This document shows positions 3,549 to 39,037 of a stretch of DNA of 64,000 nt, piece by piece. Position numbers and translations under genes: made by a program. The stretch lies in the sequence record DRR723986_6745; one strand, given 5' to 3'. The notes below the pieces were generated by a model, which saw nothing but the letters and a program-made list of their open reading frames with translations, had not been told where the DNA came from and made no database searches. Numbering within the stretch: the stretch's first letter is position 1; the number at the start of each line of letters is the position of its first letter.

Positions 3549-4343
3549 TTGAAAAACACCTACCCTTTCGACCCATTCATCAAACATCACCTGATTATCG
3601 CTCTAGGTCTGGCAATCTGGATATTTATTTTCTTGTTTTTCACAGAGCCCCTTGACGTAGGACAGCTTCCTGATGTCGATAAACTGAAGTTTCTGCCGAT
3701 TTATGGGTTGTTCGGGGCGGTAGGGTATTTACTTTGTCTTCCTATTCAATCATGGCTAGCCAGAAAAGAAGGGAGGTGGCATCTTCGCTCAGAGCTAATT
3801 TTTATGGTCACGTTGATTTTGATCGGGTTTGTTACTACATGGTTGGTTTATTTTTATATCGTGATGGATGCAAATCCTTACGCCTACACCATTGACTATT
3901 TTGCGAAAGCTATCTATCTGCCGGCAGCATTGACAGTATTTCCAATTCTGGCAATCGGTCGCTGGTCATTTGGGAAATACAAAGAGAAACAACTGGAAAA
4001 GGATAAAATAGAGATTCGTGGAGTGGGCAATTTTGAAGGACTGCGACTGCAAAGGGAGGATTTGATTTACATACAATCTTCCGATAATTACATAGAGGTT
4101 TTTTTCAAAGAGGGAGAAAATTTAAAAACACAATTGATCCGGAATAAACTTTCTACCATAGAGGAACAACTCCCAGAACTGATCCGAACGCATCGCTCTT
4201 TTTTGATCAATCCAGCTCATTTTAATCAATGGAAAACTGGCAATAGGAAATTGTTTATCCGGCTAAGTGAAGGGATAGAAGTGCCTGTCTCCAAGACTTA
4301 CTTGGAGTCCTTGAAAGCTGCGGTAAATTTCACCACAGAATAG
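3549..4343 (+). CDS. Membrane-anchored LytTR-family DNA-binding regulator
   Basis: Four TM segments followed by a LytTR domain (LIYIQSSDNYIEV...LIRTHRSFLIN...VPVSKTY). Confidence 0.9.
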   Translation: MKNTYPFDPFIKHHLIIALGLAIWIFIFLFFTEPLDVGQLPDVDKLKFLPIYGLFGAVGYLLCLPIQSWLARKEGRWHLRSELIFMVTLILIGFVTTWLVYFYIVMDANPYAYTIDYFAKAIYLPAALTVFPILAIGRWSFGKYKEKQLEKDKIEIRGVGNFEGLRLQREDLIYIQSSDNYIEVFFKEGENLKTQLIRNKLSTIEEQLPELIRTHRSFLINPAHFNQWKTGNRKLFIRLSEGIEVPVSKTYLESLKAAVNFTTE

Positions 4344-5767: not shown

Positions 5768-6004
5768 GCTCTTTCGTTGATTCCAGTTAAAAAACAGAAC
5801 ATGCGAAAACGTAAGGACTTTACACCTACAAGTTGAACGTGGACCAGGACTAGTTGTAGATTATAACTACAGCTTTATTTCTTTCCGAATTTGTAAATCG
5901 TTTGATTCGAATTATTTTCTTTAGATGGGTGTAGTTGCAAAATCATCCATTGTTATCACTATCTGACTACACCCAGAAGGGGCGATGAAGGCTGTAAAGT
6001 GGTT

Positions 6005-6147
6005 CTTACTTCAATATTCGACCTTCATCATTCATCATTCGATATTTCATACTTCTCACTTCGTACCTCGTATTTCAAATTACCCTGACCCTCGAAATTC
6101 GTCAATCGTATTTCAAAAATCCCACCTACAACCTCCAAACTTCCCCC
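6005..6147. repeat. Degenerate 7-nt-periodic array downstream of the TIR gene
   Basis: Units such as ATTCATC ATTCGAT ATTTCAT ACTTCTC ACTTCGT ACCTCGT ATTTCAA. Confidence 0.7.
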
Positions 6148-6176: not shown

Positions 6177-7058
6177 CTATCCCCACAGGAAAGCCTTTTT
6201 CTCTTCTACGCCCACGTAGACCAAACAGCTGGAAGGAGTGCTTTCAAAGATGCCTTTGAACTTTGCGAGCCATAATTCTAAGTGGGCTTTCAGTTCTTTG
6301 AGCCTAGGGATATCAGAAAGGAGCGCTCGGTTTTGCTTGAGTAGATCCAAAGCAGATTGATTGTATTCCGCTAAAACATTGGAGGTGTAAGCCCGAATCG
6401 TACGATGAAGAATGAGTTCATCTGCTGTCATCTGATCAAAATACTCATGAAAAAATTCCTCGTATTGAAGGCGCTTGGTATTTGGTATTCGGTTTTTGAG
6501 CTTTTGGGCAAGTTTATTTCGGAGTTTCACCTGAGCTTGGAAAGTAGTCCAGGCAGTATCCAGAATTTCCAATAAACTTTCAGCGACTTCTTTAGATAAA
6601 AGACCTGTATACTTCTGAGAGGGTGCTTCTGATCCTGGAAACTCAGCCTTACTCCAATCAAATGGGGTTTCTTTGGCCACAGCATCCAAGATCAATCGCT
6701 TGGAAGTTTCCTGATCCTTGCCCACCACATCCACATAGACGATAGATCGCAGCATTTTTGGTACTTCGCCAGGTTTCACCTTGATAGGAATAATGGCCCG
6801 GTTTACGCCAGTTGGGTCGGATTGAAATGCCGCGCCCCACTCGGGCATAGTGAAAATAGATGCAAAATAGGCAGCAGAATATACGGCTATCGTTTTATTG
6901 GCTTCTGTAGCTTTGAGCATTTCAAACACGAAATTGGAACCCGGCCGAAAGTCCTTTGCCTGCAAAACAGTGGTGTAGCCAGCCTCTTCGAGGATTTTGC
7001 TGATCCAAATAGCCCACTGAACATCATTTGCAGTATAGCTTATGAAAAAATCTTTCAT
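6177..7058 (-). CDS. TIR-domain (TIR_2) protein with an uncharacterised helical C-terminal domain
   Basis: N-terminus DFFISY...WI...LEEAGY...DFRPGSNF...S..Y..S.FTMPEW retains the Glu at the TIR catalytic position. The true end may be 6148 (see findings). Confidence 0.9.
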   Translation of the reverse strand: MKDFFISYTANDVQWAIWISKILEEAGYTTVLQAKDFRPGSNFVFEMLKATEANKTIAVYSAAYFASIFTMPEWGAAFQSDPTGVNRAIIPIKVKPGEVPKMLRSIVYVDVVGKDQETSKRLILDAVAKETPFDWSKAEFPGSEAPSQKYTGLLSKEVAESLLEILDTAWTTFQAQVKLRNKLAQKLKNRIPNTKRLQYEEFFHEYFDQMTADELILHRTIRAYTSNVLAEYNQSALDLLKQNRALLSDIPRLKELKAHLELWLAKFKGIFESTPSSCLVYVGVEEKKAFLWG

Positions 7059-13661: not shown

Positions 13662-14018
13662 CTAATCATTTTGCAATGTTAGAAAGTTAAGTAAAATGTG
13701 TTTTTTTGAGTTGACTGTTAAAGTGTCAGAACCGGAGTTTTTTTGAAGTTCATCCCCTATAATAAAGTTCCCTTGGAGTTCATCTCCCATAGATGGAGCC
13801 GAAATTATTTGGTTCGTCAAAACGATTAAATAGTCTCCGTGATTATATAAACTGAAAAGGACTCTTCCTTTGATTTCCGTATCGCGTTGGAGTTGAGTTC
13901 CGGTTATAAAAAGGACCATGATAAGAATGAAGATCCCTACAAAAGTAATCATGATGACTCTACTTCCGCGCCTTTTAATCTTCTCCTTCCTTTCTTCAGT
14001 TTCTTGATTTAGATACAT
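13662..14018 (-). CDS. Hypothetical single-TM protein
   Basis: 118-aa ORF with ATG start and one hydrophobic segment; no recognisable motif. Confidence 0.5.
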   Translation of the reverse strand: MYLNQETEERKEKIKRRGSRVIMITFVGIFILIMVLFITGTQLQRDTEIKGRVLFSLYNHGDYLIVLTNQIISAPSMGDELQGNFIIGDELQKNSGSDTLTVNSKKHILLNFLTLQND

Positions 14019-14509: not shown

Positions 14510-14533
14510 CTTATTTTTAATAGCTTATATGAT

Positions 14534-14571
14534 AAAAAAAATATCCCTCAGATTGCTCTAAGGGATATTTT
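14534..14571 (-). terminator. purL intrinsic terminator
   Basis: AAAAAAAATATCCCT...AGGGATATTTT hairpin; the A-run gives the U-tail on the minus strand. Confidence 0.75.
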
Positions 14572-14585
14572 GTTGTTTGAGGTTC

Positions 14586-14667
14586 TGAATTTTTCAATCT
14601 TCAAATCTTTCAATTTTCCAATCAGAATAATATCGAATGCTGAACGTCGAATGATGAATATCGAAGT
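14586..14667. repeat. 8-nt and 7-nt periodic arrays abutting the purL stop codon
   Basis: TTTTCAAT CTTCAAAT CTTTCAAT TTTCCAAT, then ATCGAAT GCTGAAC GTCGAAT GATGAAT ATCGAAG. Confidence 0.75.
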
Positions 14668-17600
14668 TTAAGAAGTGTGATTTTCAACCCAAAGGCGTGC
14701 ATTCACAAAAGCCTCCATCCATGGTGTAAAGTCATCCTTTCTATCAGCAGGATAGTGAGCCCAGTTCCAAGGCTTCAGACTTCGCTCTATATGTGGCATA
14801 ATCGCCAAGTGACGACCGTCGGCGGAAGCGATACCTGCAGTAGCATGATCGGAACCGTTTGGATTGCCTGGATAAGCTTCGTAGCTGTATTTCATTGCGA
14901 AGTTGTAGTCGCTTGCGGATTGAGGAAGTGCAAACTTGCCTTCTCCGTGTGCTACCCATACGCCTAGTCTCTGTCCGCTAAGTGAGCCTAGCATCACAGA
15001 TTCGTTTTGTGGGATGGTTACGTTCACGAAAGTAGATTCAAACTTATGGGATGCATTGTGTAGCATCTTTGGTTTGTCGGCATGATCAGGAGTGACCAAG
15101 CCAAGTTCTACCATCAGTTGGCAACCGTTACATACGCCCAAACTCAAGGTGTCAGGTCTAGCGTAGAAGTTGTCCAGCGCTTGCTTAGCCTTAGGATTGT
15201 AAAGGAAGGCACCTGCCCAGCCTTTGGCCGAACCCAGTACATCGGAGTTGGAGAATCCACCCACAAAGACGATCATCTGTACATCTTCCAGGTTTTCGCG
15301 GCCTGCAATCAGATCGGTCATGTGAATGTCTTTCACCTCGAATCCTGCCAACCAAAGTGAGTAAGCCATCTCACGATCGCCGTTCACACCTTTTTCACGT
15401 ATAATCGCTGCTTTCGCCTTGCCTTTGGTAGTGCGGAAAGGATCTAGTCCAGCAGTTGCGAAACTGCCTTTCCAGCCTTCTGCAAACTCAAATGCAAGCG
15501 GCTGATTTTTATAATTGTCAAAGCGGTCTTTCGCTAGTTGCTCTCCGCTTTGCTTTCTGTCTAATAAGTAAGAAGATCTGAACCATACATCACGAAGCTC
15601 AGCGATGTCCAGTGTCAGGTCTTTTCCTGCAAACTCAATGTTTCCAGAATCAGTCACTTTTGCAAGTTCCACATAATCAATGTCAGCTTCCACCAACAAG
15701 GTTTCCACAGCATGGTCATCGGCCACCTGAATCAGGATTCCCGGATTCTCGGCAAATAGCGCTTTCACCATGTCAGCCTCATGTAGGCGATTCAGTTTTA
15801 CTTTCAACCCAATATTTTGCACCGGGAAGCACATTTCCAACAGGGCTGTTACCAATCCACCTGAAGAGATGTCGTGTCCTGCCAGGATCCAAGTTTGATC
15901 GATCAGGTCCTGAACTGCGGTAAATGCCTTCGCGAAATATCTAGGGTTCTTGACGTCTGGAGTTTCTGTTCCGACCTTGTTCAAGGCCTGATAGAAGCTT
16001 GAGCCAGCCAGTTTGAAGTCGTCCTTAGAGAAGTCTATGTAGAGGATTCTACTTCCTTTGATAGGTTTCAAGGCAGTTTTCACGGTTTTCTGTACATCAG
16101 AGCATTCACCCACGGAGGAGATAATCACTGTTCCCGGGGAGTAAACCGTTTTTCCGTCAGGATATTTCTGAGTCATGGAAAGGGAATCCTTTCCTGTAGG
16201 AATGTTCACGCCCAGATCAATCGCAAACTTGGATACGGCCTCAACTGCTCTATATAGTCTATCGTTTTCGCCTTTGTTTTTGGCTGGCCACATCCAGTTG
16301 GCAGAAAGGGAAATCCCCTGCAAGCCATCCTGAATATGCGCAAAAATCAAGTTGGTCATCGCCTCAGCAATCGCTAATCGGCTACCTGCTTCCGGATCTG
16401 CCAAAGCTGCCACTGGCGCATGACCGATGGAAGTTGCGATTCCTTTGTTTCCCGTGAAATCAAGCGCCATCACAGCCACGTCATTCAGCGGAAGTTGAAT
16501 CTCACCGACGGTCTGCTGCGTAGCCACACGACCTGTCACGGATCTATCTACTTTATTTGTCAACCAATCCTTACATGCTACCGCTTCCAGCTGGAGTACT
16601 TCGCGTACATAGGCTTGGATCAGGTCAGCTTCATAGCTTGCTTCCGCAAAAGTTGAGTTGGTCGTATCGTCTTCCAAAATGGTTTTAGGAGATGAACCGA
16701 ACATGTAGCTCAGGTTCCAGTCCACCGGCTTCTCTCCGGTTTTGCCATTTTCGAATTTGAAATGCATATCTCCGGTCGTCTCGCCCACCACATAGAATGG
16801 CGCGCGCTCACGGTCAGAGATCTGATGTAAGGTATCTACGTCCTTTTTGCCAATCACCAATCCCATACGTTCCTGGGATTCGTTTCCGATGATTTCCTTA
16901 GCAGAAAGGGTAGGATCTCCCACCGGAAGTTGGTCGATGTGGATTGTTCCTCCGGCATCTTCCACCAATTCAGAAAGGCAGTTCAAATGTCCACCAGCTC
17001 CGTGATCGTGGATTGAAATGATTGGGTTGTCTTCGCTCTCAGCCATGGCGCGTATCACATTGGAAACACGCTTTTGCATTTCAGGATTGGAACGCTGAAT
17101 TGCATTTAGCTCGATTGCGTTGGAAAGTTCTCCGGTGTTCAGGGAAGAAACAGCCGAACCGCCCATTCCGATTCTATAATTGTCGCCGCCCATGATCACA
17201 ATCTGATCACCAGCTTTTGGAGCGTCTTTTTTGGTGTATTTGGCATTGGTGAATCCCACGCCACCAGCCAGCATGATTACTTTATCAAAACCGTGGTGCT
17301 TGCCGTCCTCTTCATGCTCGAAAGTCAAAAGGGATCCGGAGATCAGGGGTTGACCAAATTTGTTTCCGAAATCAGAAGCTCCGTTGGAAGCTTTGATCAG
17401 GATATCCATAGGCGTTTGGTACAGCCAAGGACGTTCTTCCAACTTGCTTTCCCAAGATCTTCCTTTCTCGGAACGAGGATAAGAAGTCATATAAACTGCC
17501 GTTCCTGCCAAAGGAATTGAGGCAGTTCCGCCAGCCATACGGTCTCTGATTTCTCCACCGGCACCAGTGGCCGCTCCGTTGAATGGCTCCACGGTAGTTG

Positions 17601-18393: not shown

Positions 18394-18760
18394 AGATTGA
18401 AAAATTTGAAAATTGAAAGATTGAAAAATGTACTGATCAGTTTTCAGAGGTCAGTCTCAGTTTTCAGTTCGAGAGGAGAGAGGATTTGTTAGTGCGAAAG
18501 CAATCTGTTTTGATTTACGAAATATGAATTACGATTTACGGGATTTCCGAGGAGTTGAGCTAATCTTGAATAGTTAGTCTCGTGCCTATTACCATGCAGT
18601 CTTCAGGCTGCGAAGTTTTGAAATTGAAATACGAAGTCAGAAGACTTCATAACAGAAGATCCAAGCCCGTCTGAGATCGGACAGATCTGAAGACTTGAAC
18701 CAACCTGTTTCTCAAATCTTATGTCTAAGGTCTTGCTACTTGATACTGGTGTCTTGCTAC
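18394..18760. repeat. Patchwork of degenerate 7/8-nt tandem arrays between purL and tetR
   Basis: GATTGAAAAATTTGAAAATTGAAAGATTGAAAA; TCAGTTTTCAGAGGTCAGTCTCAGTTTTCAG; GATTTACGAAATATGAATTACGATTTACG; TCTTGCTACTTGATACT. Confidence 0.65.
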
Positions 18761-18934: not shown

Positions 18935-19534
18935 ATGAGAGAGAAGATTTTAGAAATAGCAAGTGAGCAATTTAGCCAGTATGGTGTAAGAGCCATTACC
19001 ATGGAGGATATTGCGCGCTTGGCTGGAATATCCAAGAAAACAATCTACCAAGAATTCAAAGATAAAAAGGAGCTAGTGATGGAGACTTTTTCTTTGGCGC
19101 TAAAGGAAGATCAAGAATCATTAAACAAGATTTTGGAACAAGAAGATGGGGTGATTGAACATTTAATGTTTACCTCCAGAATGGTTCGTGAGCGCCTTGC
19201 TACCTTGAACCCTATGGTGTTGCTCGAAATTCAAAAGTATTTTCCTGAGGTGTGGGAAATGTTTAATGAGTTCAAACAGAATGTTATTGTGACAGATATC
19301 GTCAATGTGATAGAGAAAGGCAAGACTCTTGGCTATTTTCGCCCTGAAATAAACGCTAAAGTCTTGGCAAATATGCGCGTTGATCAAATTACGGCTGCTA
19401 TGAACCCTACCAATTACAATAGAAATGATTATAGCTTATTATCTCTGCATGTGGAGATGCTAGATCATTTTTTACATGGTATCTTTACCGAAAAAGGCAG
19501 GCAATCATATTTGCAACATCAGAATTCAGTTTAA
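18935..19534 (+). CDS. TetR/AcrR-family regulator
   Basis: N-terminal HTH ITMEDIARLAGISKKTIYQEFKDK. Confidence 0.95.
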   Translation: MREKILEIASEQFSQYGVRAITMEDIARLAGISKKTIYQEFKDKKELVMETFSLALKEDQESLNKILEQEDGVIEHLMFTSRMVRERLATLNPMVLLEIQKYFPEVWEMFNEFKQNVIVTDIVNVIEKGKTLGYFRPEINAKVLANMRVDQITAAMNPTNYNRNDYSLLSLHVEMLDHFLHGIFTEKGRQSYLQHQNSV

Positions 19535-33670: not shown

Positions 33671-33970
33671 TTACAAAAATGTCAATCCAATTTTCTTATT
33701 CAATCCTTGCTCAAAAATTCTGATTAATGTAGAAAGCTGGATGTTTCCTTTTCCATTTTCAAGCTTAGAGATGTAGCTCTTTTTTGTCCCAGCTTTTTCA
33801 GCCAATTGCTCCTGAGTAAGGTTGGCTTCTTTGCGTGCTGACTTGAGCATTTCACTCACGATGAACATTTGAGCACCTTCCTCGTACTGGTTGCGACTTT
33901 CTGTGCCGATCTTTCCATGTTCGAGCTCTATTAAGTCATCAAATGTTTTTATATTTTTATAGTCATTCAT
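33671..33970 (-). CDS. XRE-family HTH antitoxin (HigA-like)
   Basis: LKSARKEANLTQEQLAEKAGTKKSYISKLENG, downstream of the toxin. Confidence 0.9.
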   Translation of the reverse strand: MNDYKNIKTFDDLIELEHGKIGTESRNQYEEGAQMFIVSEMLKSARKEANLTQEQLAEKAGTKKSYISKLENGKGNIQLSTLIRIFEQGLNKKIGLTFL

Positions 33971-33974
33971 AGTT

Positions 33975-34310
33975 TTAGTTTTTACCATCAAAATATTCTT
34001 TCATAATCCGCTCTGTTTTTTCAATCTCTTTATGAGGGGTCTTTTGCGATTTCTTTTGAAATCCATTGAATAAGATTACCAATTGCCCCTCGTCAAAGCA
34101 GCAAAATATGCGGTAGATATTAGATTGAACCTCAATTCGGATTTCATAAAGTCCGTTAGTTCCAGTTAAATGTTTCAGGAATTTCTTGGGAACACGGTCA
34201 ACTTGCTTAATCAATTCGAAAACGTATTGAATTTTACTTTTTACTTTTAAGTCTTGCTCTCGGTAAAATTCAATGAAGTGGTTTTCGTAAAAGATTATCT
34301 TTCTATTCAT
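33975..34310 (-). CDS. RelE/ParE-superfamily toxin (HigB/Gp49-like)
   Basis: KHL.GT.GLYEIRI....NIYRIF..F.....ILFNGFQKKSQKTP..EI. Confidence 0.9.
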   Translation of the reverse strand: MNRKIIFYENHFIEFYREQDLKVKSKIQYVFELIKQVDRVPKKFLKHLTGTNGLYEIRIEVQSNIYRIFCCFDEGQLVILFNGFQKKSQKTPHKEIEKTERIMKEYFDGKN

Positions 34311-35219: not shown

Positions 35220-37280
35220 ATGAGCAATACCAATTTCAAAAGATATACCATTACTTCTGCGCTTCCTTATGCGAATGGCCCACTTCACATTGGTCACTTA
35301 GCTGGATGTTACATCCCTTCAGATATTTATGTGCGCTATTTGCGAAGCTTAGGCAAGGATGTGGCATACATCTGTGGTTCGGATGAGCATGGAGTTGCGA
35401 TTACTATCAAAGCTAAAAAAGAAGGAAAAACCCCTCAGGAAGTGGTGGATCACTACCATCAGATCATGAAGGGGAGTTTTCAGGAATTTGGGATCAGTTT
35501 TGATCACTACTCCCGCACCTCTGCGCCAATTCATCATGAAACTGCACAGGGATTTTTTAAGGACTTGTACGAAAAAGGCGAATTTCTCGAGCAAAGTACG
35601 GAGCAATATTATGACGAGGAAGCTAATCAGTTTTTGGCAGATCGATACATAGAAGGTACCTGCCCAAAATGTGGCAATCCGAATGCGTATGGTGATCAGT
35701 GTGAGAAATGCGGCAGCTCATTGAGCCCGACAGATCTTATCAACCCAAAGTCAAAACTAAGCGGAAGAACTCCAGTATTGAAAGAAACCAAGCATTGGTT
35801 TTTGGACTTGGCAAAGTATCAGAGTTTTCTGAAAAAATGGGTGCTAGAGGATCACGCTGACGATTGGAAAAATAACGTACTGGGACAATGTAGATCATGG
35901 TTGGAAGCTGGTGATGGTTTGCAGGCTAGATCTATGACCCGTGATTTGGATTGGGGAATCAAAGTGCCTTTGCAAGACGCAGAGGGCAAAGTTCTTTACG
36001 TTTGGTTTGACGCACCTATTGGATATATCTCTTCTACTAAAGAGTGGGCTGCGGAAAAAGGAATCGATTGGGAACCGTATTGGAAAGATAAAGACACCAA
36101 ACTTGTGCACTTTATCGGAAAAGATAACATCGTGTTCCATTGTATTATTTTCCCTGCTATTCTCAAGACTCACGGAGAGTACATTCTTCCAGATAATGTT
36201 CCTGCAAATGAGTTTTTGAACCTGGAGGGAGATAAAATTTCTACTTCTAGAAACTGGGCAGTTTGGCTGCATGAGTATTTGGAGGAATTCCCTGGCAAGC
36301 AGGATGTGCTTCGCTATGTGCTGACTGCTAATGCTCCTGAAACTAAGGATAATGACTTTACCTGGAAGGATTTCCAAACTAGAAATAACTCAGAGCTGGT
36401 TGCTATTTACGGGAATTTCGTGAATCGTGCCGTGGTTTTGACACATAAATACTATCAGGGAATCATTCCTCAGCGTGGAGAATTGACTGGCTATGATCAG
36501 GAGGTTTTGGATGCATTGGCAGAATTCCCTGAGAAAATTGCCGCATCCATCGAGCGATACCGTTTCCGAGAGGCTTTGGGAATTGTGATGGATTTGGCCC
36601 GCTTGGGCAATAAATACCTGGCGGACACAGAACCTTGGAAAGTTATCAAAACCGACGAAGCCCGTACTGGAACTATCTTAAACATTGCATTGAACATCGC
36701 TGCGAATTTGGCTATTGTATCAGAGCCTTTCTTGCCTTTCACTGCTGGGAAACTGGTGGATCTTTTTGGGATGGAAAAAATAGACTGGTCCGAGGCTGGT
36801 CAAGGTGAGCTTCTCAAAGCAGGAACTTCACTGGGAGAGATGGGATTGCTATTCGAAAAAATCGAAGATGTAACCGTAGAAAAACAAGTACAAAAACTAT
36901 TAGATGCCAAGAAGATGAATGAAGCTGAAAATGCACCAGTGACTCCAATGAAGGAGATAATCACCTACGATGATTTTGCGAAGCTGGATATGAGAGTAGT
37001 GACTATTTTGGAAGCGGAGAAAATGCCAAAATCCAAGAAGTTACTTAAACTCAAAGTTGATATTGGACTAGGTGAAAGAACAGTTCTTAGCGGTGTAGCT
37101 GAGCATTTCGAGCCAGAGTTTTTGGTAGGGAAACAAGTCACAATGCTGATCAATTTGGCCCCAAGAAAAATGATGGGAATCGACTCTGAAGGAATGATTT
37201 TGATGGCAGAAGACAAAGACGGCAAACTGAAGCTGATGGTTCCGCATGAAGGAACTGCGAGCGGATCGACGATTTCATAA
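35220..37280 (+). CDS. metG: Methionine--tRNA ligase
   Basis: [13 protein letters not shown], Zn knuckle CPKC...CEKC, KISTS, C-terminal tRNA-binding OB domain; TATCTTTG -7 box at 35145-35152. Confidence 0.98.
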
Positions 37281-37372
37281 ATTATCAAAGTTCAAACTCA
37301 AGTTTCAATGGACAAGTGTTGAGGACTTCAACCTTGAGAATTAATTATTGACCATTGAAAATTGATCATTAA
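37278..37372 (+). repeat. Heptamer-periodic hairpin, left copy
   Basis: TAA-A-TTATCAA AGTTCAA ACTCAA GTTTCAA TGGACAA-loop-TTGAGAA TTAATTA TTGACCA TTGAAAA TTGATCA TT. Confidence 0.85.
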
Positions 37373-37378
37373 ATTTTG

Positions 37379-37411
37379 GCCCAATTGGATTAAATTCGAT
37401 TGGGCTTTTTT
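37379..37411 (+). terminator. Probable metG terminator
   Basis: GCCCAATTGGA-TTAAA-TTCGATTGGGC-TTTTTT. Confidence 0.75.
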
Positions 37412-37422
37412 AATGGTTTTTT

Positions 37423-37785
37423 ATGGATAAGAAATATGATTTAGAAGAACGGCTAGTTCGTTTTGCTGGAGAAACCATCAAATTTTGTAATTCTTTAGGC
37501 GATACTTTTGCCGAAAATCATTTGCGAAATCAATTAATTAGATCTGCTACTGGTGGGTGCCTTAATTATGGTGAAGCACAAGGTGCCGAGAGCAAAAAGG
37601 ATTTTGTGCACAAAAATGGGATAGTTTTAAAGGAGTTAAAAGAATCTAGATCAACCTTGAAAATATTAACCTATTCTGAATTTGGAGATGCAATTCTTCG
37701 ATCGGTTCTTTTGAAGGAATCAGAAGAACTTTGCGCGATTTTTGGTAAGATCATCTTTAATACGAAGAAGAATATGATGCAATAA
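37423..37785 (+). CDS. Four-helix-bundle protein (TIGR02436 / 23S rRNA IVS-protein / Avd-like family)
   Basis: DLEERL..FA...I.F...L......NQLIRSAT....NYGEAQGAES.KDF.HK..IVLKELKES..L.IL; 120 aa. Confidence 0.92.
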   Translation: MDKKYDLEERLVRFAGETIKFCNSLGDTFAENHLRNQLIRSATGGCLNYGEAQGAESKKDFVHKNGIVLKELKESRSTLKILTYSEFGDAILRSVLLKESEELCAIFGKIIFNTKKNMMQ

Positions 37786-37869
37786 ATTATCAATTATCAA
37801 ATTCAAGTTTCAATGATCAAGTTGACTAAACTTTGAAAATTGATAATTGAAAATTGTCCATTGCTCATT
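37783..37869 (+). repeat. Heptamer-periodic hairpin, right copy
   Basis: TAA-A-TTATCAA TTATCAA ATTCAA GTTTCAA TGATCAA-loop-TTGAAAA TTGATAA TTGAAAA TTGTCCA TTGCTCA TT. Confidence 0.85.
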
Positions 37870-38775
37870 TCAGTGTAACGGTCTCTTCTTAATCATCCCT
37901 CCCTTGGTATCCTTAATAGGGTATTGGATTACAAAGGCTTTGGAGTCAATTTTTTCTATCTCTAATAACATTTTGGTGACTTCCAGTCGAGTAATCACAC
38001 AGAATAATACTTTTCTATCCGGTAGTTGATTGGCTTTGTCGCCATAGCCTCCGTCCGACTTGAGCACCGTTACTCCTCTTCCTAGATCGTGAGAAATCAT
38101 TTGTTTGATGTCTTCATTGTGTGGAGACATGATCATCACACCTAAATATTCTTCTACACCATTGATGATGAAATCTACCGTTTTGGAAGCTGAGAAGTAA
38201 GTCAGCATGGAGTACATCGCCGTTTCTATTCCTACGAATATTGCCGCAACTATAAAAAGGCAAACATTGAAAATTGTAATAAAATCCCCTACCGTTAGGC
38301 TTGATTTTCTGCTGACTGATATCGCCAATACTTCTGTGCCATCGATAACTGCACCGCCACGAATAGCGAAACCAATTCCAGACCCAAGGAAGAATCCTCC
38401 AAATACGGCAATGAGCAGTTTATCTGCAGTGATTGCTGGAACTTCTATGAAGTGTACCAAAAAAGCTAAGCCAAAGATGGCAATTGAGCTTTTGAGGGCA
38501 AACTGTAAGGAAACCTGTTTGGCACCTAACAGGATGAATGGCAAATTGACTAAGATAATAAGTACAGAAAGGTTGACTGGGGTGAGCATTTCCAGAAGTA
38601 GGGACATGCCCATTGCACCACCGTCGAAAAAACCGTTGGGGAGCAAAAAGCCTTTCAAGCCAATACTAGCCATCACAACTCCGATAGCTATGAAAAGTCC
38701 GTCTTTGATTTGTCTCCAAATCGTAATTCTCTTTACCAGTTGATTGTCCTGAATTTTTAAAAGTCTTTTCACCAT
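37870..38775 (-). CDS. YitT-family membrane protein (DUF161 + DUF2179)
   Basis: FLLPN.FFDGG..G, NLPF, GG..DGTE.LA, RGVT, ID.KAF. Confidence 0.9.
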   Translation of the reverse strand: MVKRLLKIQDNQLVKRITIWRQIKDGLFIAIGVVMASIGLKGFLLPNGFFDGGAMGMSLLLEMLTPVNLSVLIILVNLPFILLGAKQVSLQFALKSSIAIFGLAFLVHFIEVPAITADKLLIAVFGGFFLGSGIGFAIRGGAVIDGTEVLAISVSRKSSLTVGDFITIFNVCLFIVAAIFVGIETAMYSMLTYFSASKTVDFIINGVEEYLGVMIMSPHNEDIKQMISHDLGRGVTVLKSDGGYGDKANQLPDRKVLFCVITRLEVTKMLLEIEKIDSKAFVIQYPIKDTKGGMIKKRPLH

Positions 38776-39037
38776 GGTTCGAAAATAGAATTTTTTAATC
38801 AACAGTTCTGCCAACAATGCAATCTAAGGCAAGAATAAATTCATAACTTATGATGGAGGATAAGATAAACTACTGGATTGTCATCATTGAAGTATTTGTA
38901 AGAAATGAAGCCTGTTTTTAACAAAATGTGGTGTTATTAGTTATTTTAATAAAAATTTGAGCCTATTTTCTTAAAATTTTTGACAATTACGCTTTTTCAT
39001 CTATCTTTTTGAACCTAGTTTGATTTTAAATAAACTT

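Follow-up and report, generated by a model that had tools for sequence, protein, structure and literature searches.

In this study, a stretch of 64,000 nucleotides from the sequence record DRR723986_6745 (the window) was analysed around a small gene that encodes a four-helix-bundle (4HB) protein of 120 aa and lies at 37423..37785 on the plus strand, between metG and a yitT-family gene. We observed that this gene, a member of the S23p / 23S-rRNA intervening sequence (IVS) protein / Avd-like family, is bracketed by two hairpin-forming arrays of 7-nt units (heptads), that arrays of the same period but of lineage-dependent units surround most of its relatives, and that one relative in Nostoc interrupts a coding sequence (CDS) which is intact at two empty sites. 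These results suggest a small insertion cassette that is widespread and apparently undescribed. As regards the window copy itself, we incline, without great confidence, to read it as a fixed and old copy of a widespread IVS-like selfish cassette, in which an S23p/Avd-family gene sits within inverted heptad arrays that act as its cis sites.

Heptad arrays at the metG-yitT locus

The metG gene (methionine-tRNA ligase; 35220..37280, plus strand; NF001100 5.9e-261, PF09334 4.9e-159) ends in a TAA with which the left repeat also begins, and the TAA stops of metG (37278-37280) and of the 4HB gene (37783-37785) both run into ATTATCAA, just as an earlier note on this DNA, made from the letters alone, had claimed. 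The left heptad hairpin (37278..37375, plus strand) carries five NNNNCAA units at 37281-37315 and TTG units at 37320, 37334, 37348, 37355 and 37362, and the right one (37783..37869, plus strand) starts from the TAA of the 4HB gene with five CAA units (37786-37820), followed by a loop and five TTG units (37833-37863). The five CAA units keep an identical spacing of 7, 6, 7 and 7 nt in both flanks (37286-37315 and 37791-37820), and arrays of at least four CAA units occur three times in the window against 0.04 per mononucleotide shuffle, the third one being found at 19033 with 8-nt spacing. The same note had described the flanks as direct repeats of about 90 bp with five TTG heptamers each. This likeness holds for the 5' arms, which are 85% identical over 41 nt (blastn-short E ~3e-4), but the 3' arms are similar in kind only; likewise, the right flank displays five TTG units spaced 7, 7, 7 and 7 nt, but the left flank has three adjacent ones (37348, 37355, 37362) and two further gaps of 14 nt. 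The right copy had also been said to reach the stop codon of yitT; the yitT-family membrane protein gene (37870..38817, minus strand; PF02588 2.5e-53, PF10035 1.1e-14) is indeed convergent, but the copy ends 6 nt short of its stop (37870-37872). No further copy of the metG/4HB repeat was detected in the window by blastn-short, which returned chance matches of 10-14 nt only. The window arrays consist of head-to-tail, intergenic 7-nt units of an imperfect kind, in which only CAA/TTG is fixed.

The right hairpin folds with a minimum free energy (MFE) of -18.9 kcal/mol (z -3.2), which 0/200 shuffles equal, and the left hairpin with an MFE of -19.2 kcal/mol (z -1.8), which 10/200 shuffles equal. 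Their inverted-repeat arms extend over 29 nt with 76% complementarity on the left and over 24 nt with 83% on the right. Long-range complementarity was also noticed, between 37280-37303 and 37825-37848 (24 nt, 79%) and between 37348-37365 and 37803-37820 (18 nt, 89%); these pairs compete with the local hairpins, and a stem around the open reading frame (ORF) is so far a candidate only. Across six species, the TTG/CAA anchors are invariant every 7 nt and the intervening bases drift, in agreement with the earlier remark that the register is kept while the bases between vary.

An intrinsic terminator (37378..37412, plus strand), which the earlier note does not name, separates the left hairpin from the 4HB gene and has a 13-bp stem, a 3-nt loop and a T-tract. 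Its hairpin (37378-37406) and T-tract end about 10 nt before the 4HB start codon, and the 148-nt fold at this place has a z of -4.6. The same GC-rich hairpin with its T-tract was also seen by eye in the flank printout of L002-L005, L013, L014 and L018 (L numbers denote the loci compared below). A promoter scan for the window gene disclosed sigma-70-type consensus matches only, located inside the arrays, the Bacteroidota promoter type being outside the consensus of the tool. The locus corresponds to that of Algoriphagus winogradskyi DSM 15360 (L001), with 100% identity of the 4HB protein and 99.6% identity of MetG.

The membership of the 4HB protein in TIGR02436, which the earlier note had assumed, was confirmed by profile scores above the cut-offs, namely 60.7 bits for TIGR02436 (cut-off 24; 1.3e-16) and 38.4 bits for PF05635 (cut-off 33.8; 1.6e-9), together with an S23p/Avd-like fold in the predicted structure. 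The AlphaFold (AF2) model, computed from a 50-sequence alignment, has a predicted local distance difference test score (pLDDT) of 95.5 and helices at residues 7-22, 29-53, 58-85 and 90-119. Its best structural matches are BT_0352 of the 'S23 ribosomal protein family' (2RLD, template modelling (TM) score 0.80-0.88) and Xcc0516 (2GSC, TM 0.78-0.85), followed by lower matches to Avd (4DWL, TM 0.74-0.80) of the diversity-generating retroelements (DGRs) and to Avd in the DGR ribonucleoprotein entries 8UB7 and 8UB8; in a sequence search of the solved structures with phmmer, 2RLD alone was recovered (1.3e-6). Both Avd and 2GSC (Lin 2006, through the excerpts of PMC4990558) are homopentameric toroids. 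PADLOC gave no match for the window 4HB protein, and the single 4HB match in a phage collection was weak (29.7%, E 1e-4) and fell in a record without annotation.

Arrays, insertion and inheritance among relatives

Relatives of the gene were compared at 46 loci, comprising 33 genome loci and 13 distinct plasmid loci, which come overall from Bacteroidota, from plasmids of Cyanobacteriota and from a candidate phyla radiation (CPR) genome. Arrays were detected with a simple anchor rule, the criterion at genome loci being at least four period-7 units within 120 nt of the gene. Such chains were found upstream in 25/33, downstream in 26/33 and on both sides in 22/33 genome loci, compared with a background, over the 201 kb of these 33 loci, of 68 chains or ~0.05 expected per flank, and with 20/1320 shuffled flanks. 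When a strict period of 7 was applied to all 46 loci, arrays were recorded upstream in 27, downstream in 37 and on both sides in 25, as against none for periods 4, 6, 8, 9 and 10, five upstream for period 5 and one for period 11. The flanks of relatives thus carry period-7 inverted arrays far above chance (25/46 on both sides), and the refuting condition set by the earlier note, namely paralogues without such flanks, did not come true. In a printout of the genome loci, 7-nt periodic arrays adjoin almost all copies, among them those of Flavobacteriaceae, Bacteroidales, Chitinophagaceae, Rhodohalobacter, Saprospiraceae, a Cytophagales metagenome-assembled genome (MAG), a Pirellulales-labelled bin and a CPR genome. 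Over genome and plasmid loci together, the units depend on the lineage, including CAATGAT, AAATGTA, GGAATAA, GAACCGA-type, CACCAAG, AATTCAA, AATTCGC, AGTCGGA and AAAAAGT. On the CPR contig, two paralogues lying 2 kb apart even have different units.

Within one locus, the downstream array is the complement of the upstream array, and the energies of upstream/downstream duplexes are lineage-matched, the cognate or same-family pairs being the best. For these duplexes, z values of -4.2 to -6.4 were obtained at L008, L020, L023, L024, L025, L027 and L029. At L001, L030 and L033, both flanks form complete hairpins of their own, and the duplexes are weak (z -0.6 to -1.4). In the type I loci L020, L023-L027, L034, L036 and L039, complementary arms of ~28-35 nt surround the ORF, which is thereby placed in their loop, and in L020, L023 and the cyanobacteria the 4HB gene is enclosed within one pair of arms. 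Stop-codon anchoring is a trait of the family, because the downstream array starts at most 10 nt from the 4HB stop in 22/46 loci. Five anchors is the modal count (29/92 flanks), and the number of units per array varies from 3 to 32 in Algoriphagus, is 4 perfect units in several cyanobacterial copies and rises to 37 in L046.

With reference to the plasmids, a tblastn search returned 15 records from Nostoc, other Nostocales, Pseudanabaena and Bernardetia, and 12 of the 13 distinct loci among them have arrays on both sides, the thirteenth (L045) displaying a 45-nt inverted repeat with two heptads only. The arrays of Nostoc flagelliforme are perfect, with (AATTCAA)x4 before and (TTTTGAA)x4 after the gene; N. 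punctiforme combines (AATTCGC)x4 with (GCGAATT)x4, and Dolichospermum and Nostoc C052 combine (AATTCGT)x4 with (ACGAATT)x4. The evidence of insertion consists of a single comparison of filled with empty sites and a single transposed copy. The element is absent from Nostoc sp. ATCC 53789 and from a Lobaria cyanobiont (L042, L043), where a CDS of 399 nt is uninterrupted; by alignment to these two empty sites, the N. flagelliforme copy (L034) is a ~540-nt insertion within that CDS, bordered by the 11-nt direct duplication TGGAGTTGGGT, for which the empty site reads TGGACTTGGGT. The marks of a transposable element, namely terminal inverted repeats, a target-site duplication and empty sites in relatives, are found together for this Nostoc copy. 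The transposed copy is that of Aulosira laxa, where the same element, with 76% nucleotide identity, lies between two unrelated genes, its 490-nt match beginning at the first heptad unit and stopping inside the 3' array. Furthermore, the arrays and gene of L034 (1371-1920) are 100% identical over 550 nt to those of L040 and L041, on three N. flagelliforme plasmids of one strain, and the flanks of this block are mostly 82-97% identical, which suggests a recent conversion or re-insertion at paralogous sites. These three copies were rejected as independent insertions, all of them being located in paralogous plasmid backbones.

Several neighbours of the plasmid cassettes deserve mention. In three of the 13 plasmid loci (L046, L048 and L050, on Nostoc plasmids), XisH and/or XisI follow directly downstream of the 4HB cassette, and in two of the three TnsA or a DDE transposase stands upstream; a similar sporadic distribution of heptamer repeats and XisH/XisI is mentioned in the excerpts of PMC4679880. 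Array-bearing 4HB cassettes are inserted between cas2 and cas1 at two loci and between csx2 and cas1 at one, among L035, L049 and L038 (Anabaena, Nostoc and Pseudanabaena plasmids). The longest chain, of at least 37 GCGACTT/ACGACTT-type heptads, is located downstream in L046 (1050-1310), where only 4 complementary units are found upstream, so one arm can grow alone.

In Algoriphagus, the picture is one of inheritance. The 4HB gene has metG upstream and/or yitT downstream in 10 loci (L001-L005, L013, L014, L018, L021 and L022), and the other copies of the genus, with protein identities of 75-81%, fall into two further synteny groups and one singleton, two of them (L007 and L016) being held by a single MAG. 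These synteny groups, and the two loci within one MAG, indicate by comparison of sequences that the Algoriphagus paralogues are old and that each is vertically inherited. All Algoriphagus copies share the layout of a CAA array and a TTG array, the gene, and again a CAA array and a TTG array. The left and right repeats of one species are no more alike than orthologous copies between species, that is, there is no concerted evolution. The right region of L001 is 80-82% identical to that of L002/L014, as against ~60% identity at third codon positions in the adjacent genes and 60-67% in alignments of unrelated CAA arms. A target duplication is not evident at the metG-yitT copy. The proposal of the earlier note that repeat, gene and repeat form a mobile unit accordingly gains from the Nostoc empty sites and the 11-bp duplication, but not from the metG-yitT copy, which is syntenic in its 10 loci and lacks concerted evolution.

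Some further features of these loci were noticed. In L014 (Algoriphagus locisalis; 4070-4220), a ~150-nt insert resembling a miniature inverted-repeat transposable element (MITE) splits the orthologous 4HB gene; it has imperfect terminal inverted repeats of ~26 nt, a duplication of ~9 nt (ATTTTGTAA) and a short CCGANGA heptad run inside. Four heptad hairpins stand in tandem with no genes between them in L019 (3600-4000), upstream of its broken copy, and two stand in tandem with no gene between them in L022 (2470-2650), downstream of its broken copy. At Algoriphagus locus B (L010, L011, L015 and L016), the TGA of the upstream gene falls within the first heptad unit (AATGATCAATGA...), and heptad units containing TGA, TAA or TAG supply every reading frame with a stop within 21 nt.

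The cassette reading and its rivals

The observation reported in the earlier note stands, and its interpretation is supported in part, by the protein family and fold, the flanks of relatives, the Nostoc insertion and the orphan array at the purL stop. Among known systems, the nearest is the 23S IVS. In the excerpts of PMC4990558, the Coxiella IVS is described as forming a 28-bp terminal stem that RNase III cuts and whose loop contains an S23p ORF, and as long suspected to be mobile, with the ORF serving mobility (citing Ralph and McClelland 1993), and IVS are presented as selfish elements whose mobility is not understood and whose ORF is often decaying. The 23S IVS (Leptospira, Coxiella, Brucella and Xanthomonas-type S23p) have in common with the window a PF05635/TIGR02436 protein and a small ORF, and in common with the array-bearing relatives complementary ends of ~28-35 nt and a decaying ORF (6/33 broken copies here). 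Unlike them, the window copy lies between metG and yitT with no rRNA and hence not at a helix 25 or 45 site, an Rfam gathering scan of the window having returned 0 families and no rRNA, and its arms, made of tandem 7-nt units, appear to form two local hairpins (direct repeats) rather than one stem around the ORF. As for Avd, the available text of 10.1101/2023.10.23.563531 describes a pentamer with a positively charged barrel, gripped by a stem-loop that belongs to the RNA encoded next to the Avd gene. The 4HB fold is common to both (4DWL, TM as above), but unlike a DGR the window has no reverse transcriptase (RT) among the 50 ORFs scanned and no template/variable repeat pair.

Tandem 7-nt repeats have been known since about 1990. 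Short tandemly repeated repetitive (STRR) sequences of cyanobacteria were reportedly described by Mazel in 1990, and Elhai is said to have described, in 2008, small dispersed repeats within heptamer arrays. The portions available of PMC4679880 and PMC4692102 report TAACTGA in Beggiatoaceae, Cyanobacteria and Bacteroidetes (PMC4679880), convergent GGGAATC pairs in Xanthomonas and convergent pairs also in Nostoc (PMC4692102); the repeats are intergenic, often at start or stop codons, with some convergent pairs capable of forming stem-loops, and are sporadic across the phyla considered here (both papers), with no mechanism evident (PMC4679880). In contrast to these repeats, the window arrays are imperfect, with 3-4 conserved bases per unit, and are tied to one gene family. 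A comparison can also be made with repetitive extragenic palindromic (REP) sequences, their hairpin doublets (REPINs) and the associated transposases (RAYTs), where the link was first drawn from a single-copy gene flanked by hairpin repeats that were also dispersed as orphans. The likeness consists of a gene flanked by hairpin-forming repeats, with orphan copies in intergenic DNA; the differences are that no catalytic domain is known in the 4HB protein, that the repeats are tandem heptads and not a fixed palindrome, and that no single sequence family is dispersed within the window. Integron cassettes likewise have a small gene without a promoter and an imperfect hairpin after it, arrayed genes bracketed by hairpins, and an excision that would leave one hairpin, but the window has no integrase domain and no attI, and its hairpins apparently lack the layout of attC core sites, the check having covered the presence of an integrase.

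On the cassette reading, the element would be an ancient arrival in the metG-yitT spacer; it would have inserted as DNA at a heptad hairpin or next to it, or have duplicated such a hairpin. Transcripts of metG would run through the left hairpin and end at the terminator, the 4HB gene might be expressed from signals in the TTG arm of the left hairpin or by read-through, and the right hairpin would close the 4HB message as well as that of yitT. The arrays would constitute the cis part and the 4HB protein the trans part, CAA pairing with UUG as RNA (or as single-stranded DNA). The protein, presumably a pentamer, would read the arrays by a 7-nt ruler, in parallel with the Avd pentamer on a stem-loop of its own element's RNA, and the complementary arms may be RNase III substrates, like those of the 23S intervening sequences. 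The heptad arrays are probably read by the cassette's own protein.

Several results weigh against this reading. The loci are phylogenetically clustered and not independent, since 22/33 genome loci belong to the Algoriphagus lineage and make up about four synteny groups. By the four-unit criterion, arrays are lacking in 8/33 upstream and 7/33 downstream flanks of the genome loci, and on both sides in L013, L021, L028 and L030, although inspection by eye disclosed arrays of irregular 7/8-nt spacing in the last two; moreover, arrays need no adjacent gene, because they are found without a 4HB gene in the window and at other loci. At the window locus, a terminator separates the left hairpin from the gene, the left hairpin is not clearly above its shuffles, and no recombinase, integrase, transposase, RAYT-like gene or RT was detected by Pfam among the 50 window ORFs scanned. 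Synteny and repeat comparison give no evidence of recent movement of the metG-yitT copy, the broken 4HB copies counted above carry stops, frameshifts or, in L014, the MITE-like insertion, and no target duplication is visible at the Aulosira laxa copy, which leaves the duplication in one case only. The idea of five-unit arms made for a pentamer was rejected as a rule, the counts ranging from 3 to 37 across the Algoriphagus, cyanobacterial and L046 arrays. Pairing itself is poorly kept: among 30 Algoriphagus hairpins, cognate arms pair no better than arms taken across loci (means of -0.49 and -0.57 kcal/mol per nt, respectively), RNAalifold gave -5.4 kcal/mol for the right hairpin of six species with an unfavourable covariation term (+1.53), and a compensatory change was seen in 1/15 pairs. 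The case for the hairpin as an RNA structure under selection is weak. A repeated recognition site would fit better than a stem kept for pairing only, because the anchors are invariant, the other bases drift and the period is 7 whatever the sequence; ongoing slippage could be the source of renewed units.

The foremost rival in our ranking, though an unlikely one, is an RNA-only IVS-like element, whose arms would only form stems for RNase III or 3' exonucleases that excise or stabilise the 4HB message, with no protein recognition and with a period left by replication slippage. It draws on the homology with IVS ORFs, on the long-range complementarity in the window, and on the type I ORFs in the loop of ~28-35-nt arms, which recall the Coxiella IVS with its 28-bp, RNase III-cleaved stem (PMC4990558, excerpts). 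Slippage alone, however, leaves a constant period of 7 across lineages unexplained when the other periods of 4, 6, 8, 9 and 10 occur at 0/46 loci; conservation between species is confined to three to four anchor bases, with no covariation at the remaining stem positions, and solo direct arrays such as that at 6003-6062 are unable to form hairpins.

Ranked next, and still less probable, is the view that the hairpins themselves are mobile or recombining (REPIN-, attC- or MITE-like) through an unlinked enzyme, the 4HB gene being a passenger or the whole target hairpin having been duplicated. No integrase, transposase or RAYT-like gene in the window speaks for it, the left and right repeats do not evolve in concert, and a passenger would leave unexplained why a single cargo family with paralogue-dependent units recurs in Bacteroidota, Cyanobacteriota and CPR; yet a circular gene-plus-hairpin cassette that recombined with a resident hairpin would yield hairpin-gene-hairpin, gene-free tandem hairpins (four at L019, two at L022) and orphan arrays exist, the Nostoc 11-bp duplication resembles a transposase-type staggered cut, and DDE transposase, TnsA and XisH/XisI adjoin some plasmid copies. 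We consider it very improbable that nothing more is involved than an ordinary small conserved gene next to terminator-like, A+T-rich hairpins, with low sequence complexity making left and right look alike. The stably inherited locus, the modest hairpin energies and the 60-67% likeness of non-homologous CAA arms would suit this last view of coincidence, but period-7 arrays on both sides at 25/46 loci across phyla against ~0.05 expected per flank, the perfect 4 x 7 inverted arrays of cyanobacteria and the insertion disclosed by the empty-site comparison do not.

The cassette reading can be extended to a broader proposal, which we put forward tentatively and would sooner doubt than adopt: S23p/Avd-family proteins may be the trans partner of bacterial heptanucleotide repeats (STRR-type), in a RAYT-REP-like relation, each paralogue reading its own unit by a pentameric ruler, the gene being carried as a small insertion element with inverted arrays on either side and the 23S IVS being the same element in rRNA. 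Given that Avd is the obligatory cofactor of a reverse transcriptase, RT-assisted array growth or cassette insertion might also be considered. Two puzzles would become testable together, namely the role of S23p/IVS-ORF proteins outside DGRs and that of intergenic 7-nt repeats in cyanobacteria, Bacteroidota and some proteobacteria, and a gene family whose members almost always lie between such arrays, with matched units and a documented insertion, offers a candidate pair for binding, processing and mobility. The cassette view also accounts for 4HB genes between housekeeping genes, in cas operons and inside other genes. In the searched text of PMC4679880 and PMC4692102, which covers part of each paper, four-helix-bundle, S23 or IVS proteins have 0 mentions, and the full-text literature yielded no paper linking the TIGR02436/PF05635 family to heptamer repeats, subscription journals and bioRxiv supplements being outside this search. 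In papers that name PF05635, the family figures either as Avd-like or as one encoded near CRISPR and defence genes, and the cas-gene neighbours found here could account for its scoring as 'CRISPR-associated' in surveys.

Orphan arrays and neighbouring features

The earlier note had expected orphan arrays at other stop codons of the window, and one clear case was found. At the stop of purL, an array at 14575..14670 on the minus strand runs from the TAA (14668-14670) through five TTCR units to GAA-type units and is followed by a terminator at 14530-14575; the array alone folds with a z of +0.24, and together with the terminator with a z of -3.5, and no 4HB gene is nearby. The 3' ends of purL (14530-14670) and metG share the design of stop, array and terminator, with different unit families (TTCR/GAA at purL). 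The other two orphans are intergenic and off any stop. One is a direct array of 9 NNNTTCR heptads at 6003..6062 (plus strand), between an S41 peptidase gene and a TIR-domain gene, with no hairpin (z -0.1); the other comprises TTGAAAA / TCAGNNN arrays at 18400..18467 (plus strand), upstream of purL, with a fold z of -1.6. Several unit families per genome were also observed away from the 4HB gene at the loci of relatives.

With regard to further genes of the family, no second 4HB gene was detected in the window by a Pfam scan of 47 further ORFs and a local family profile, and the local profile recovered one extra 4HB gene only across the 33 genome loci. A 118-aa ORF at 13662-14018, downstream of the purL array, was tried as a candidate and set aside, having no Pfam family and no heptad flanks. 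The TIR-domain gene mentioned above (6177-7058, minus strand; PF13676 1.6e-24) has its stop 115 nt from the array at 6003-6062. Finally, a toxin-antitoxin-like pair of Gp49/DUF891 (HigB-like) and HTH_3 genes, overlapping by 17 nt, is located at 33671-34310, about 0.9 kb upstream of metG.

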